From the NCBI GenBank assembly GCA_023382455.1, contig JAHDVX010000009.1:16701-80700 (forward strand): a DNA stretch of 64,000 bases, given 5' to 3'. The number at the start of each line of letters is the position of its first letter. Positions within the stretch are counted from its first letter, which is position 1. Of this stretch, positions 5,810 to 48,387 are shown piece after piece. The stretch is from Flavobacteriales bacterium. Its GTDB lineage: Bacteria; Bacteroidota; Bacteroidia; Flavobacteriales_F; PHOS-HE28. Made by a program: the position numbers and the translations under genes. Below the pieces are notes generated by a model. The model ran no database searches, was not told the origin of the DNA, and was given only the letters and a program-made list of their open reading frames with translations.

Positions 5810-8277
<2,468 letters not shown>

Positions 8278-43847: not shown

Positions 43848-44660
43848 TTAGCTTCCGGCCACCATCTCCCGCATGATCAGCGTCAAGCTGGGCTCGGCTT
43901 TTTCGGCCACGCGCTGCACCATCTCGTGGGTGGTCTTTTCAATGCGGCCCTCCACGCCCATGTCGGTGATCACGCTCATGGCAAAGCAGGGCAGTCCCAT
44001 CTGCCGAGCGGCGATCACCTCCGGCACGGTGCTCATGCCCACCGCATCCCCGCCGATGATCCGCACATAGCGGTATTCCGCCGGGGTTTCCAGCGTGGGG
44101 CCCGTGAGGCCCACGTAGGTGCCGGTGCGCACCGGGATGTTGTTCGCCTTGGCAATGGCCTTGGCACGGGCCACCAGGCCGTGGTCATAGGCCTCGCTCA
44201 TGTCCGGGAAGCGCGGGCCGAAGGCGTCGATGTTGGGGCCGATCAACGGGTTGGGGAAAAGGTTGATGTGGTCCGTGATGATCATCAGGTCGCCGGTCTC
44301 GAAGCCTGCGTTCACCCCGCCGCAGGCGTTGCTCACGAAGAGCCGTTGGATGCCGATCAGCTTCATCACCCGCACGGGCAGGATCACCTCCGGCATGGTC
44401 CAGCCTTCGTAGTAGTGGAAGCGGCCTTGCATGGCCACCACCGGCTTGCCGCCCAGCAGGCCGAAGAGCAGCTTGCCGGGGTGCCCTTCCACGGTGCTCA
44501 CGGGGAACTCCGGGATGTCCTTGTAGGCGATTGCGTGTTTCACGTCGATCTCCTTGCCCAGGCCGCTGAGGCCGGTGCCCAGGATGATGCCGGTCTCGGG
44601 CACGAAGCCGCCGGTGGCTTTCTTCAGGTGGTCAGCGATGCGCTGGATGCGTTGCAACAT
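43848..44660 (-). CDS. purine nucleoside phosphorylase (PNP family I)
   Basis: [27 protein letters not shown] and STVPEVIAA motifs. Confidence 0.88.
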
Positions 44661-45708
44661 GGGATCGGATCAGTGCTTCGAATTCGTGTGGTTGGTCCAG
44701 GATGATGGATCGGATGCCGATCACTGCCACGGGAATGCCCCGCAAAGGGCCGTTCAGGGCGGCGGTGCCGAGGCGCGCAGCATCCTTTTCGGTGGTGATC
44801 AGTGTTTTTCGGCTGGTGGCGAAGCTATTGAAAACCGCCGCCACATGCTCCAGCTCTTTTTCACTGAAGGCGTGATGGTCGCTGTAGGCCAAGTGGCGAA
44901 CGGTGCCGAAAAGGCCTCGTACATGCGCGGCCAACGGGGCAGGGTCGGCCACGCCGGTGAGCAGGAGGGCCGCGGTATCCGGACCTTGATGGACATCCCC
45001 TGTGGAAGCCAACGGCCTGGGAGCTTCGTACCGCAGCCCGCTGAAGAAGAGGGCTTGCCGGGGCAGGAGGCGCAGCTTTCGCCGCCAGGCCTCGCGTGCT
45101 TGGTGTGAAGGGCGCTCCGGGCATTTGGTCACGATCACCACCTCGGCCTGCCGGGCGCGGTAGGGCAGGTCGCGCAGGTTGCCCGCAGGCAGCAGGTGGT
45201 CCTCATTCCATGGGCGCTGCCAGGTGGTGAGCACGATGTTCAGGCTGGACCGGAAGGCCCGATGTTGCAGGGCATCGTCCAGGATGACGGCCCGCAACTG
45301 CGGTACGCGTTCCCGGATCCCGGCAACCGCCTGGGCCCTGTCCGCCCCTACGAACACGTGCACGCCACTGAACTTGCGCTTCAACATCAGCGGTTCGTCG
45401 CCCACGCTGGCCGCATCGCTTTCCATGGACACTTCGGCAAACCCGGTGCCCTTGCGGCCGTACCCCCGGCTCAGGGTGGCCAGCACCGGGACGGGATCGC
45501 TTCCTTGGCCGTCCAACAAGGTGCGGAGCACAAGTTCCACATGGGGGGTCTTCCCCGTGCCTCCCAAGGCGATATTGCCGACCGTGATGGTGGGCACATC
45601 GGCGCTTTTAGCCCGCAGCCACCCGAGGTCGTAGCCGGCGTGGCGCAGGCGCAACACCAGGCCATAGAGCCAGGAGAAGGGGAGGAGGGCCAGCCGCAGG
45701 AAGGACAT
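44632..45708 (-). CDS. lpxK: tetraacyldisaccharide 4'-kinase
   Basis: [13 protein letters not shown]-loop, a ~358-aa size, and the LpxK-family layout. It overlaps the PNP start by 29 nt. Confidence 0.85.
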
Positions 45709-45835
45709 GGAGGCCAAAGATGGGCAGCCGGGAGGAATGCGTTGCGCCAAGCTTCCCATGGGATCTCCAAGACCTTGTGGTTACGGGGCGGCCTTCCGCT
45801 GCATTGGCAGTTCAAATTGCCATAGCGTGGTTGAA

Positions 45836-45867
45836 ATATCGCCACAAAGTGGTGAAATTTACAAGCC
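45836..45867. repeat. left arm of an imperfect inverted repeat flanking the AAA ATPase gene (contains the palindrome TCGCCAC-AAA-GTGGTGA)
   Basis: TATCGCCACAAAGTGGTGAAATTTACAAGCC lies immediately 3' of the ATPase stop. It matches the reverse complement of 47119-47157 at about 30 of 43 positions. Confidence 0.55.
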
Positions 45868-47099
45868 TACCATTCCCAGACGGCGCTCAGCGGAACGGCA
45901 TGCAGGTCCTTGCTGAACGGGGTGACCGAAGCCCCGGTGTGCAGTACGATGCCCCGCACCCAGTGCTTCCCGGCGGCGTTTCGCAGCTCCGACAGGCCAC
46001 TGAGGTCGCGCGGTCCGATGCTCGCCGAGGCTTTCACTTCGATGCCCACGACACGCCCGGCTGGATCCTCCAGCACCAGGTCCACTTCCTTGCCGGTATC
46101 CATGCGGAAGTGGTAGGGTGCCACCGGCAGCTTGGCCCAAGTGGCCATCTTCCGGAGTTCGTTCACCAGGAAACTTTCCAACAGGTGCCCCCAGTTGGGG
46201 CCTGCCGCCAATTGCGATGGGGCGGCGGCGCCGCACAGCCAAGCGGCGAAGCCGGTATCGGCAAGGTGGACCTTGGGCGATTTCACCAGGCGCTTGGCGC
46301 GTGAGGCATGCCAAGGCTGCAGCGGTGTCAACAGGAAGGTGGCCTCCAGCAGCGCCATATAGCGCCGCAGGGTGGAGTGGGGGATGTCCAGGTCGCGGGA
46401 GATATCGGCCAGGTTGAGCAGGTTGGCGCTGCGCAGGGCCAGCTGCGTCAGCAGCCTCGGCAGCGTGGTAAGGTCGGCGATGTTGCTGATGTCGCGCACG
46501 TCCTTTTGAAGGATGGTGGCGATATAGGCCTGATACCAGGCATGGCGGCGGGCACCATCCCGGCGCTGGCGCACTTCCGGGTAGCCACCCGCGAAGACAC
46601 GCCGCGCCATGGAGGCCATGCCGGCGGCGTCGGTGTAGCCCAGCGGGATCCGGGACTTGAAGAGCGTATCGATGAAGGCGCTCCTACGGCCGGCGAGCTC
46701 ATCCTGCGCGAAGGGGTGCATGGAGATGATCTCCATGCGGCCGGCGAGCGAATCGCCCATGCGCGGCAGGGCCAGCACATTGGCGCTGCCGGTGAGGAGA
46801 AAGCGCCCCGGCCTTCGGTCGCGGTCCACCGAGGCCTTGATGGCCCGGAAGATGTTCGGGGCGTTCTGCACTTCATCCACCACGGCGAACGGACCAAGGG
46901 ATTCCACGAAGCCGGCCGGGTCGTTCAATGCGGCGTGCAGCATGCCGTGGTCGTCCAAGGTGACGTAAACGGCCTTGCGCTTCCGGGCGATATCGCGCAC
47001 CAAGGTGGTCTTGCCGGTCTGCCGGGCACCGTTCACCAGCACCACGGGGGTATCCTTCAACGCAGCCGCGATGGCTGTGGCGATATTGCGGTTCTTCAT
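45867..47099 (-). CDS. AAA+ ATPase (AAA_14 + DUF4143-type, COG1373-like)
   Basis: The Walker A motif is VNGARQTGKTT and Walker B is VVDEVQ. The C-terminal domain is typical of the DUF4143 ATPase family. Confidence 0.75.
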   Translation of the reverse strand: MKNRNIATAIAAALKDTPVVLVNGARQTGKTTLVRDIARKRKAVYVTLDDHGMLHAALNDPAGFVESLGPFAVVDEVQNAPNIFRAIKASVDRDRRPGRFLLTGSANVLALPRMGDSLAGRMEIISMHPFAQDELAGRRSAFIDTLFKSRIPLGYTDAAGMASMARRVFAGGYPEVRQRRDGARRHAWYQAYIATILQKDVRDISNIADLTTLPRLLTQLALRSANLLNLADISRDLDIPHSTLRRYMALLEATFLLTPLQPWHASRAKRLVKSPKVHLADTGFAAWLCGAAAPSQLAAGPNWGHLLESFLVNELRKMATWAKLPVAPYHFRMDTGKEVDLVLEDPAGRVVGIEVKASASIGPRDLSGLSELRNAAGKHWVRGIVLHTGASVTPFSKDLHAVPLSAVWEW

Positions 47100-47118
47100 G
47101 GCACACCAAAGTTATCCA

Positions 47119-47157
47119 GGTTTGTAAAAATCGCCACGACATGGCGAAAATATAACC
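47119..47157. repeat. right arm of the inverted repeat (contains the palindrome TCGCCAC-GAC-ATGGCGA)
   Basis: GGTTTGTAAAAATCGCCACGACATGGCGAAAATATAACC lies 20 nt upstream of the ATPase start codon, in the divergent region shared with nif3. Confidence 0.55.
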
Positions 47158-47292
47158 ACGATGTGAATATTGGAACAGCCTTCCGCGGGATCACCCGGGA
47201 CCGGCCTCGCCAGTAAAGCGCACCCATGGAGAGGGCCTGGCCGGATCGGTCATGCATGCTCACGGTACCTTGGCGCTCCGATTCCGAAGAGC

Positions 47293-48387
47293 ATGAAGAT
47301 CAAGGAGGTCATCCAAGAGTTGGAGCAATGGGCACCGCCCATGTTGCAGGAGGAGTACGACAACAGCCGCCTGCAGACGGGCCACCCGGACCAGGACGTC
47401 AAGGCAGCCCTGCTTACCCTGGATTGCACCGAGGCCGTGGTGGCGGAGGCCGTGGAGAAGGGTTGCGGCCTGGTCATCACGCACCATCCGGTGATCTTCA
47501 AAGGGCTGAAAAGCCTCACCGGCGCCACGGATGTGGAGCGCACCATCCTGGCCGCCGTGCGGAACAACGTGGCCATCTATGCCATCCACACCAACCTGGA
47601 CAACGTGATCGATGGGGTGAGCGGGGAGATGGCCGCCCGCCTTGGCCTGAAGCCGCTGCACGTCCTTGATCCCAAACCGGGGCAGTTGCAGAAGTTGGCG
47701 GTCTTTGTGCCCAAGGACCACGCGGATGCGGTGCGGGATGCCATGTTTGCCGCGGGGGCAGGCCGGGTGGGGGCCTATGATGAATGCAGCTTCAACCTCG
47801 AAGGGACCGGCACTTTCCGGGCGGGTGAAGGCACGGACCCATTCGTGGGAGAGAAGGGCATGCGCCACGGGGAGCACGAGGTGCGGGTGGAGGTGATCTG
47901 CCCGGCCACCGTGCAGCAGGCCGTGGTTACCGCCATGGAAGCTGCCCATCCGTATGAGGAGGTGGCCTATGACCTGTACCCGCTCCTGAACCGGCACCAC
48001 GGGGTGGGCAGCGGCCTGGTGGGAGAGTTTGATGAGGCCATCCCTGAAACGGAGTTCCTGGACCGGCTGAAGGCCGTTTTCGGTCCACCCGCCATCCGGC
48101 ATACCGCCTTGCGGAACAGGCCGGTAAAGCGTGTGGCCCTTTGCGGCGGCTCGGGCGCCTTCCTGATCGGCAAAGCCTTGGCCGCCAAGGCGGATGCCTA
48201 TGTGACCGGGGATGTGAAGTACCATGATTTTTTCCTGCCTGAGGGCCGGTTGCTCTTGGCCGACATCGGCCATTTTGAGAGCGAACGGTTCACCCCGGTC
48301 CTGGTCCAGCGCCGGTTAGCCCGGATTCTGCCTACCTTTGCCACCCGTTTGTCGGAAACGGGCACCAATCCCATTCATTTTCATTGA
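47293..48387 (+). CDS. Nif3-like dinuclear metal center protein (GTP cyclohydrolase 1 type 2 homolog)
   Basis: GLVITHHP...AIYAIHTNLD and a C-terminal YVTGDVKYHDF are NIF3/YqfO-family hallmarks. The true start is at MKIKEV. Confidence 0.85.
   Translation: MKIKEVIQELEQWAPPMLQEEYDNSRLQTGHPDQDVKAALLTLDCTEAVVAEAVEKGCGLVITHHPVIFKGLKSLTGATDVERTILAAVRNNVAIYAIHTNLDNVIDGVSGEMAARLGLKPLHVLDPKPGQLQKLAVFVPKDHADAVRDAMFAAGAGRVGAYDECSFNLEGTGTFRAGEGTDPFVGEKGMRHGEHEVRVEVICPATVQQAVVTAMEAAHPYEEVAYDLYPLLNRHHGVGSGLVGEFDEAIPETEFLDRLKAVFGPPAIRHTALRNRPVKRVALCGGSGAFLIGKALAAKADAYVTGDVKYHDFFLPEGRLLLADIGHFESERFTPVLVQRRLARILPTFATRLSETGTNPIHFH

Follow-up and report, generated by a model that had tools for sequence, protein, structure and literature searches.

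The window, a stretch of 64,000 nt from a Flavobacteriales genome, carries an AAA_14/DUF4143 ATPase gene between lpxK and NIF3 (Table 1). This arrangement had been called in an earlier note made from the sequence alone, and domain matches for AAA_14, DUF4143, LpxK and NIF3 confirmed it. On the minus strand, the ATPase gene runs from the start codon at 47097-47099 to the stop codon CTA at 45867-45869; the start of lpxK is probably at 45708 rather than at 45759.

Table 1. Features in and around the ATPase gene (window coordinates).
Feature	Position	Strand	Description
lpxK, left neighbour	44632..45759	-	domain match; conserved CCAAAGATG promoter motif
Downstream module	45812..45866	-	begins directly 3' of the ATPase stop codon; decayed second unit 45816-45835
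Downstream core	45838-45856	-	gene strand: TTCACCAC-TTT-GTGGCGAT, with GCTTGTAAAT before it
AAA_14/DUF4143 gene	45867..47099	-	410 aa; AAA+ ATPase, winged-HTH and PD-(D/E)XK nuclease domains
Half-site AATATCGCCACA	47076..47087	-	within ATPase codons 5-8 (N-I-A-T)
Predicted -7 promoter box TAACTTTG	47107..47114	-	7 nt 5' of the ATPase ATG
Upstream module	47119..47170	-	palindrome core plus decayed distal unit 47150-47170
Upstream core	47130-47148	-	gene-proximal; gene strand: TTCGCCAT-GTC-GTGGCGAT, then TTTTTACAAACC
NIF3/DUF34, right neighbour	47293..48387	+	domain match

The encoded protein is a full-length, high-scoring member of the AAA_14/DUF4143 family (COG1373; PADLOC candidate PDC-S01), matching Pfam PF13173 (AAA_14, E = 1e-25), PF13635 (DUF4143, E = 1e-43) and, over residues 3-409, the PADLOC PDC-S01 profile PDLC04790 (E = 6e-159). 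Its Walker A (GARQTGKT) and Walker B (VVDE) motifs are intact. Among 61 homologs, G29, K30, D75 and E76 are invariant, as is the nuclease motif formed by E338-V-D340 and E354-x-K356; the PD-(D/E)XK families include DUF4143 (PMC3424549). The combination of AAA+ and winged-helix domains resembles the architecture of the archaeal ATPases 2qen/2fna and of Orc1/Cdc6. A PDB sequence search with the protein gave no homolog, NCBIfam no model and Rfam no match, and profile searches detected no transposase domain in the gene and its flanks. PDC-S01 is reported to rank fourth in frequency among the candidate defence systems of prokaryotes, with validation still pending for most such candidates (PMC12988326). 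Based on the PDC-S01 match, the window protein is a candidate anti-phage protein, and the genes neighbouring it here or in relatives (lpxK, NIF3 and dapA) are housekeeping genes. Our literature searches found no mechanistic work on DUF4143, COG1373 or PDC-S01 and nothing on cis-elements, DNA specificity or regulation of AAA_14/DUF4143 genes.

Both sides of the ATPase gene are occupied by palindromic sequences, which were read at the positions given in the earlier note. The flank 3' of the stop codon holds ATCGCCACAAAGTGGTGAA at 45838-45856, then ATTTACAAGC; 19 nt 5' of the start codon lies GGTTTGTAAAA, then ATCGCCACGACATGGCGAA at 47130-47148. The pattern TCGCCAC-N3-RTGGYGA, which had been described as common to both flanks, was indeed found exactly twice in the 64 kb, compared with 0.01 expected from 100 shuffles, none of which (0/100) contained two or more matches. 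Both exact copies abut the ATPase gene, and no additional site was detected in the window at up to two mismatches. Likewise, a consensus scan over 16 specified positions reached 14/16 at the two flank sites only, with six scattered runners-up at 12/16.

The inverted similarity of 30 in 43 positions reported for the two flanks is close to our own values of 26/38 by eye and about 69% over at least 45 nt. Aligned with each other, the flanks score 0.69 in inverted and 0.54 in direct orientation, two readings that are not independent because each element is itself palindromic. The gene-proximal palindrome on each side thus stands as described, but a further unit, now decayed, is present in both flanks. 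A strain variant (L234/L237) differs by 45838 A>T and 45853 T>C, giving a perfect TTCGCCAC-AAA-GTGGCGAA in the downstream core. Partial decay of the two window modules and their weak folding (z -2.3 and -1.7) suggest that their function in this genome may be relaxed. The half-site inside the coding sequence matches the reverse complement of 45835-45846 exactly over 12 nt; it may serve as an additional half-operator or be incidental to the codons it overlaps.

The box preceding the ATPase gene was named a -7 box on the basis of TAnnTTTG, the established consensus for Bacteroidetes-type -7 elements. A TAnnTT(T/C)G-like motif lies between module and ATG in 13 Bacteroidota cassettes (gene plus flanking modules), with the last bases varying in some, and about 16 nt separate the module end from the predicted box. 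Both lpxK and NIF3 have retained -7 boxes of their own, which lie away from the modules.

Next, we compared 11 Flavobacteriales cassettes, whose proteins are 64-80% identical to that of the window and 57-97% among themselves. Modules are present in all 11, and on both sides in the 10 cassettes with both flanks readable. The module of about 55 bp consists of two 19-bp palindromes, TTCGCCAC-N3-GTGGCGAA (unit A) and then TACACCAC-N3-GTGGCGAA (unit B), with a spacing of 22 nt in every two-unit module; the downstream unit begins 8-12 nt 3' of the stop codon in 9/10 cassettes. The order A then B is identical on both flanks, and the modules point the same way, which makes the flanks direct repeats and not terminal inverted repeats. 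Direct alignment of the flanks was better in nine of 10 cassettes, with one tie, and inverted alignment was better in the window alone. Here, only the gene-proximal unit is kept on each side, so that the flanks mimic an inverted repeat.

Modules within one cassette are more alike than modules of different cassettes (0.77 vs 0.645, permutation p < 5e-5), and lineage-specific variants are common to both modules of a cassette, such as TCCGCCAC in L015 and CCGGCCAT in L231. Unit A of the relatives forms long perfect hairpins (arms up to 23 bp, z -5 to -8.5), followed by T-runs of just 3-5. The outer hairpin arms differ between lineages yet remain complementary, which suggests selection on structure (terminator or cruciform), besides or instead of protein recognition. 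At the second locus, beside dapA, the downstream module fills a gap of 45-75 nt between convergent genes.

More distant homologs (52-55% identity) in Nitrospirota-like, Pseudomonadota and Phycisphaerae genomes have the upstream palindrome only, located at the promoter about 28 nt 5' of the ATG. In L225, this palindrome is the spacer of a sigma70 promoter predicted by a tool (TTGAAA-17-TAATAT); scans of L224 and L191 stayed under the tool threshold, with 8/12 and 7/12 counted by eye. Across two Bacteroidota loci and three other phyla, a recognisable upstream site is present in 16 of 17 cassettes, and the 17th (L226) carries a variant array, as judged by eye. In a few lineages, half-sites co-vary with the recognition helix of the protein's HTH: the conserved H-[ST]-T-[LM]-[RK]-R-Y helix pairs with TTCGCCAC-type sites, PYTTITRY with ATCACCAT/ATGGTTAT and PQTSLKRY with TCATCCAC/GTGGTTGA. 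Among plasmid homologs of about 47% identity, a related palindrome was seen in the P. mendocina copy only. The palindrome readout of the Thermus, Rhodoferax and Sinorhizobium plasmid copies is limited partly by uncertain start codons.

The sites are tightly linked to the ATPase gene. In 1.07 Mb of fetched loci, covering about 15 kb of each related genome, each of the 45 sites scoring at least 14/16 is found no more than 150 nt from an ATPase gene, and neither such sites nor solo modules occur elsewhere. The further copies that the earlier note had proposed to look for are thus absent from both the 64-kb window and these loci. A metagenome scan with the 16-nt core added, among the 120 matches listed, four located right beside ATPase homologs, together with some further module-like ones at contig ends; in this spot check, the remaining listed matches show no ATPase homolog, and most are without palindromic arms beyond the core. 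The same core gave four matches in a viral scan, with no ATPase homolog nearby. One contig (L144) with two palindromes 1438 nt apart was considered as a cassette and rejected, as it is ORF-free with 43% G+C; the pair, which is also present in L137, is probably a eukaryotic repeat.

As for its history, the ATPase gene arrived between lpxK and NIF3 by insertion. The two neighbours are directly adjacent in at least 40 Bacteroidota/Chlorobiota genomes, which bears out the empty site anticipated by the earlier note, and three empty sites (L012, L014 and L017, the last being sister to the window subclade) fall within the clade of the window. Phylogenetically, the ATPases at the lpxK site nest within the dapA-adjacent ones. 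The ancestral home of the gene is beside dapA, a position stable down to 55% protein identity, and a single relocation accounts for the tree. Homology between cassettes at these two unrelated loci stops at the outer module edges, and no other genes travel with the cassette in the loci compared. In the species of the window, the cassette is present in 23/23 contigs read, with no empty-site polymorphism.

When the empty sites L012, L014, L017 and L018 were searched by local alignment against shuffles, no solo-module scar stayed significant once multiple testing was allowed for. Between L014 and L015, 74 nt are replaced by 1719 nt, with imprecise breakpoints, as the genomes are only about 86% identical. 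No matching short repeats indicative of a target-site duplication were found outside the modules, with empty and occupied sites too diverged for a base-precise comparison. In L011, L021 and L039, the ATPases are 95-97% identical, compared with 83-89% for housekeeping proteins, and identity at four-fold sites is 0.81 for the ATPase vs 0.53-0.61 for lpxK, NIF3 and a Zn-ribbon gene. This higher identity of the ATPase at four-fold sites indicates recent lateral exchange. Of the MITE-like mobile insertion proposed earlier, the insertion is supported by empty sites and tree nesting, but the transposon is not supported: the repeats are direct, no transposase was seen, and no extra copy lies in the window or the 1.07 Mb of related loci.

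Altogether, the 1.35-kb unit is probably a self-contained single-gene cassette bracketed by two copies of its own putative operator module. Judging from the sequence comparisons, the palindromes are most likely binding sites for the encoded protein rather than transposon ends. A dyad site overlaps or abuts the gene's own promoter in the L225 spacer and in the Bacteroidota modules, these promoters being predictions, and across genomic contexts site and gene occur and vary together. From these features we infer the identity of the binding protein, repression and looping or termination. The ancestral module would comprise a pair of dyad-symmetric 19-bp sites with a spacing of 22 bp, or roughly two turns of the helix, to which dimers of the encoded protein would bind via the HTH helix P-H-S-T-L-R-R-Y. 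By abutting or overlapping the promoter, the upstream module would let the protein, a potentially toxic nuclease, repress its own gene. The role of the downstream module may be that of an auxiliary operator, which would contact the upstream module through looping or oligomer bridging, that of a hairpin terminator or insulator, or both. The cassette with its operators would have been relocated or laterally acquired once, from the dapA side into the lpxK-NIF3 divergent promoter region, and afterwards lost or exchanged in some lineages; decay of each window module to one good, gene-proximal palindrome would have produced the inverted-repeat appearance. Of the two earlier suggestions, operators for a dimeric regulator fit the evidence better, although the gene under control would be the ATPase itself and not lpxK or NIF3. 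The palindromes accompany the ATPase gene when it occurs at another locus or in other phyla, and the -7 boxes of both neighbours stay apart from the modules.

One alternative is that the palindromes act as intrinsic bidirectional terminators or insulators that isolate the gene, with gene conversion keeping them similar and no dedicated binder. The downstream module begins 0-12 nt after the stop codon and fills the convergent gap at dapA, the relatives' hairpins are very stable with complementary, non-conserved outer arms, the upstream palindrome was called terminator-like by a tool (TCGCCATGTCGTGGCGA then TTTTTACAAA), and the similarity within a cassette fits gene conversion. Nevertheless, we consider this reading unlikely. 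Terminator stems normally drift with compensatory change, whereas here the core sequence itself, beyond its pairing, is conserved over about 55-100% protein identity and across phyla. A hairpin needs neither a second unit in constant 22-nt phase nor an asymmetric half-site (TACACCAC), T-runs are short, and no terminator was called by the tool for the downstream module of the window. The palindrome of distant homologs lies about 28 nt 5' of the ATG, and that of L225 between -35 and -10 of the gene's predicted promoter. Moreover, the gene on the upstream side, such as NIF3 here or RNase T in L091/L098/L231, often points away from the ATPase gene, and the upstream copy then cannot serve as terminator for a co-directional upstream gene.

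It is also conceivable, though quite unlikely, that the modules are ends of a mobile element, recognised by the encoded AAA+/nuclease or by a transposase in trans, which moves the cassette. The occupation of two unrelated loci with homology stopping at the module edges, the scarless empty sites, the patchy presence inside one clade, the exchange among L011, L021 and L039 and the frequency of homologs of about 47% identity on plasmids speak for mobility. However, the modules are direct and not inverted repeats in 9/10 cassettes, no recognisable transposase or recombinase was found, and in the window and the 1.07 Mb of related loci each locus has a single copy and no solo modules. No target-site duplication was seen, the dapA-side position is stable to 55% identity with one relocation sufficing for the tree, distant homologs have the promoter-side site only, and the 23 contigs of the species show no empty-site polymorphism. 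Homologous recombination via the flanks can account for exchange within one locus, and similarity to MuB/TnsC is generic to AAA+ proteins. A bolder version, which we regard as very improbable, is a minimal mobile element in which one polypeptide cuts at its own palindromic, cruciform-forming ends and moves the gene between loci and genomes; it would combine a TnsC/MuB-like AAA+ domain, a sequence-specific winged helix and a TnsA-like PD-(D/E)XK nuclease. In its favour, homology ends at the module edges, empty sites are scarless and synonymous sites point to recent exchange between species. Least probable of all appears to be a host global-regulator site or dispersed REP/BIME-like repeat that flanks the gene by chance. 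Dyad symmetry is typical of many bacterial regulators, and each related genome was covered over a short section only. Yet the many intergenic copies of a REP/BIME family are absent from the 64-kb window and from the 1.07 Mb of related loci, where no copy lies off the ATPase gene; the site stays with the gene at another locus and in other phyla, and it abuts ATPase homologs in four of the metagenome core matches listed.

The proposed autoregulatory arrangement can be compared, from textbook knowledge, with the lambda immunity region, where OL and OR surround cI-rexA-rexB and CI forms loops. In both cases, tandem dyad operators of 17-19 bp with a spacing of about two turns would lie on both sides of the gene of the (here proposed) binder, one cluster overlapping the promoter of that gene and the clusters being separated by a distance of kilobase order. 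In contrast to lambda, the proposed binder is an AAA+/wHTH/nuclease protein instead of a small repressor, a cluster has two units and not three, the downstream cluster has no promoter, and binding and looping are proposals. One gene bracketed by similar same-strand hairpins, thought to be recognised by the encoded protein, is also reminiscent of RAYT genes with REP palindromes and of IS200/IS605 ends. However, the cassette is without an HUH/Y1 transposase domain or a conserved GTAG-type tetranucleotide, and unlike REP sequences its palindromes are not dispersed in the window and the 1.07 Mb, and distant homologs have the promoter copy only. A reading as replication origin or iteron array was rejected: in contrast to Orc1/Cdc6 and iteron-type Rep systems, the sequence between the repeats has no AT-rich unwinding element, nothing points to a replication function, a nuclease domain is present, and the setting is one of chromosomal housekeeping genes.

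The putative operator modules flanking AAA_14/DUF4143 genes appear to be undescribed and represent a new candidate cis-element for this abundant, uncharacterised family. A conserved 19-bp palindrome travels with one PDC-S01 subfamily across loci and phyla; it offers a testable candidate DNA ligand for the winged-helix domain and predicts tight autoregulation. In addition, this case illustrates that a decaying direct-repeat operator pair can mimic the inverted repeats of a transposon in a single genome.

The palindromes flanking the ATPase gene are real and non-random. An earlier note had described this gene as bracketed by inverted repeats of about 30 bp between lpxK and NIF3, and the observation was confirmed: the quoted sequences lie at the positions given, and the pattern TCGCCAC-N3-RTGGYGA occurs within the 64-kb window (62% G+C) only at the two flanks of the gene (two matches vs. 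0.01 expected by chance; two matches in 0 of 100 shuffles). The same two sites alone match the family consensus TTCGCCAC-N3-GTGGCGAA at 14 or more of its 16 specified positions, and the two flanks show ~69% complementarity across 45 nt or more. The lpxK start is probably the ATG at 45708 (358 aa) rather than 45759 (375 aa), with gene callers differing between contigs; a conserved CCAAAGATG motif, common to relatives, lies just upstream of the 45708 start on the lpxK strand.

Positions of genes and sequence elements in the window and in fetched loci (L-numbers)
Feature	Sequence	Position	Strand or remark
gatB, PNP, lpxK (in this order)	window		minus
Distal unit, downstream flank	window	45816-45835	decayed
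Palindrome, downstream flank	window	45839-45855	
AAA_14/DUF4143 ATPase gene	window	45867-47099	minus
Exact reverse complement (12 nt) of 45835-45846	window	47076-47087	AATATCGCCACA, ATPase codons 5-8
Palindrome, upstream flank	window	47131-47147	
Distal unit, upstream flank	window	47150-47170	decayed
NIF3, followed by Zn-ribbon gene	window	from 47293	NIF3 plus
ATPases 95–97% identical to one another, homologs of the window gene	L011	2178-3407	
	L039	4570-5799	
	L021	3-1160	
Frameshifted ATPase	L015	4385-5640	
EcoRI-like endonuclease, D12-class methyltransferase	L091	444-2267	
Locus with Thermus thermophilus plasmid homolog	L244 (NZ_AP025618.1)	78856-83055	
16-nt core, different repeat	L144	25-43, 1463-1481	
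	L137	1916-1934	
Unit A	Flavobacteriales cassettes		AAATTCGCCAC-N3-GTGGCGAATTT, gene strand
Unit B	Flavobacteriales cassettes		TACACCAC-N3-GTGGCGAwTTTTAC, gene strand, starts exactly 22 nt after unit A
Homologs with palindrome, other phyla	L224, L191		Nitrospirota-like
	L225		Pseudomonadota
	L227		Phycisphaerae

We compared 11 Flavobacteriales cassettes (the ATPase gene with its flanking elements) on the gene strand, the downstream flank lying within the fetched DNA for 10 of them. All 10 carry the same module of two palindromic units on both flanks. The upstream module is followed after ~16 nt by a Bacteroidetes-type -7 box (TAnnTT(T/C)G-like), itself 7–10 nt from the ATG (35–45 nt in three species), and the downstream module begins 0–5 nt after the stop codon; in 9/10 its unit A core lies at +8 to +12. 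Since A precedes B on either side of the gene, the flanks are direct repeats, and direct identity exceeds inverted identity in nine of ten cassettes, with one tie. An inverted reading is also possible because the whole module is nearly palindromic (TTGTAAAA...TTTTACAA). The apparent inverted-repeat geometry of the window (inverted 0.69 vs. direct 0.54) arises because the distal units have decayed and the gene-proximal palindromes alone survive. One co-occurring strain (L234/L237) has 99.25% identity over 1.6 kb and shows 45838 A>T and 45853 T>C. These two of 12 SNPs fall within the 16 core positions, and together they restore a perfect consensus palindrome at the downstream site (TTCGCCAC-AAA-GTGGCGAA). 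The L039 counterpart (ATCGCCAC) of the 12-nt reverse complement within the ATPase gene keeps the 22-nt phase of the upstream units; the window copy is 2 nt off phase.

Upstream and downstream modules of one cassette are more alike (0.77) than modules of different cassettes (0.645; p<5e-5) and have lineage-specific variants in common; the explanation is gene conversion or else co-evolution with a single binding partner. In relatives, unit A lies inside perfect palindromes with arms of 15–23 bp, whose outer parts differ between lineages and are still complementary; very stable hairpins are predicted (z -5 to -8.5), and structure, too, seems to matter.

On the sequence evidence, the palindrome belongs to the ATPase gene. 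A search for further copies, as proposed in the earlier note, returned sites of at least 14/16 only at this gene: across the fetched Bacteroidota loci (1.07 Mb), 45/45 lie within 150 nt of an ATPase gene and none elsewhere. Homologs of 52–55% identity from other phyla carry a related palindrome ~28 nt before the ATG and a half-site over the ATG. At the pseudomonadotal locus, the palindrome forms the 17-nt spacer of a predicted sigma70 promoter (TTGAAA-17-TAATAT); both Nitrospirota-like loci have this layout with weaker hexamers, and on a P. mendocina plasmid, a homolog of 47% identity repeats it with a variant of the site. The 16-nt core was also found in metagenomes, where among the matches listed four lie directly at ATPase genes, two of them Nitrospirota-type. 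Sites and protein co-vary in the lineages compared: a helix H-[ST]-T-[LM]-[RK]-R-Y accompanies TTCGCCAC-type sites, P-Y-T-T-I-T-R-Y occurs with ATCACCAT/ATGGTTAT (L226) and P-Q-T-S-L-K-R-Y with TCATCCAC/GTGGTTGA (L227). The downstream pair of sites has been found only in the Flavobacteriales lineage. Further core matches in ORF-free metagenome contigs of 43% G+C (L144, L137) belong to a different repeat (GGCTAATTTCGCCAC...GTGGCGAAATTAGCC), which is probably eukaryotic and unrelated to the ATPase.

To judge by the aligned length and by a helix-helix-helix-hairpin pattern at model residues ~210–265, alignments of the protein to the archaeal ATPases 2qen/2fna and Orc1/Cdc6 would cover an ATPase core, lid and winged helix. 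A PD-(D/E)XK signature occupies residues ~300–410, and Walker A, Walker B and the nuclease residues D340/E354/K356 are invariant in 61 homologs. PADLOC assigns the protein to PDC-S01 (E=6e-159), a "guilt-by-embedding" candidate that is said to rank fourth among prokaryotic defences by frequency; most such candidates await validation (PMC12988326). DUF4143 was listed as a PD-(D/E)XK family of unknown function (PMC3424549), and we found no literature on DNA specificity or regulation of DUF4143/PDC-S01 proteins. The expression of a Thermus AAA_14/DUF4143 gene, TT_P0211, is reported to change with plasmid DNA present (value 6.6; PMC4406477). The T. thermophilus plasmid homolog (47% identical) sits immediately downstream of an IS200/IS605 tnpA/tnpB pair.

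With NIF3 as query and one genome per species, 80 loci were obtained. lpxK and NIF3 are divergent neighbours, 15–180 nt apart, in Flavobacteriales, Bacteroidales, Chitinophagales and Chlorobiota; in L012–L090 the pair lies near position 6000, in most cases alongside PNP and the Zn-ribbon gene, and spacers go down to 15–50 nt. Among these loci, the ATPase lies in between only in the window species, L011, L015, L021 and L039, and all 23 contigs read that encode the window species' exact NIF3 contain the cassette. A five-protein concatenated tree places the carriers in one clade. Empty sites of the kind that the earlier note had asked for exist inside this clade in three genomes: L012, L014, which is the sister of L015, and L017, which groups as sister to the subclade of the window species. 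Every outgroup is empty as well, and the empty sites hold neither a palindrome nor a detectable scar of the module. Homologs with 55–74% identity to the window protein occupy another, conserved position in at least eight species, convergent with dapA-DUF6913-ligA. In the ATPase tree the lpxK-site genes form a single clade nested within the dapA-site genes, which indicates that the ancestral position is beside dapA; one relocation or acquisition into the lpxK-NIF3 gap, with later loss in some lineages, is the history read from this topology. The L015 ATPase is frameshifted near residue 81, and both its modules are still perfect 15-bp-arm palindromes. L091 encodes an endonuclease/methyltransferase pair some 1.7 kb upstream of its ATPase at the dapA site; in L093 this spot is taken by a different DNA methylase.

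The best-supported reading, which we consider rather probable, is that the palindromes serve as operators to which the encoded protein binds as a dimer via its HTH. The operator reading of the earlier note is supported, with the ATPase itself rather than lpxK or NIF3 as target. The upstream pair, on or next to the promoter, would serve to autorepress an ATP-dependent nuclease that is potentially toxic. The downstream pair could be an auxiliary operator bridged to the upstream pair by the oligomerising AAA+ domain, in an arrangement resembling lambda OL/OR; alternatively, it could act as a hairpin terminator or insulator, or combine such a role with that of an auxiliary operator. Pure terminators or insulators would account for the downstream copy, but leave the conserved core sequence, the phased second unit and the promoter-embedded copies of other phyla unexplained, and are unlikely. 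Host-regulator sites or REP elements are highly improbable, given that the sites are exclusive to the ATPase gene in the window and the 1.07 Mb.

That the cassette is a mobile element, for which homology stopping at the module edges and the clean empty sites speak, appears quite doubtful. The empty sites in the clade and outgroups bear out an insertion, but not the TIR-bracketed MITE of the earlier note: the modules are direct, no target-site duplication was seen, there is no transposase, each locus has one copy, and synteny beside dapA is long-lived. In favour of mobility, the cassette is also anomalously similar among L011, L021 and L039, with ATPases 95–97% identical vs. 83–89% for flanking housekeeping proteins. 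Four-fold-site identity is 0.81 for the ATPase vs. 0.53–0.61 for lpxK, NIF3 and the Zn-ribbon gene; over the ATPase comparisons it ranges from 0.80 to 0.88, and for the other three genes it is 0.52–0.61 in two L011 comparisons. This suggests recent lateral exchange, but at one and the same locus, for which homologous recombination via the flanks suffices. Autoregulatory operators are a known kind of element; new here would be their duplication at both gene ends. The ATPase-nuclease family is abundant and uncharacterised, and the flank element seems to be a cis-regulatory feature of it that has not been described before.
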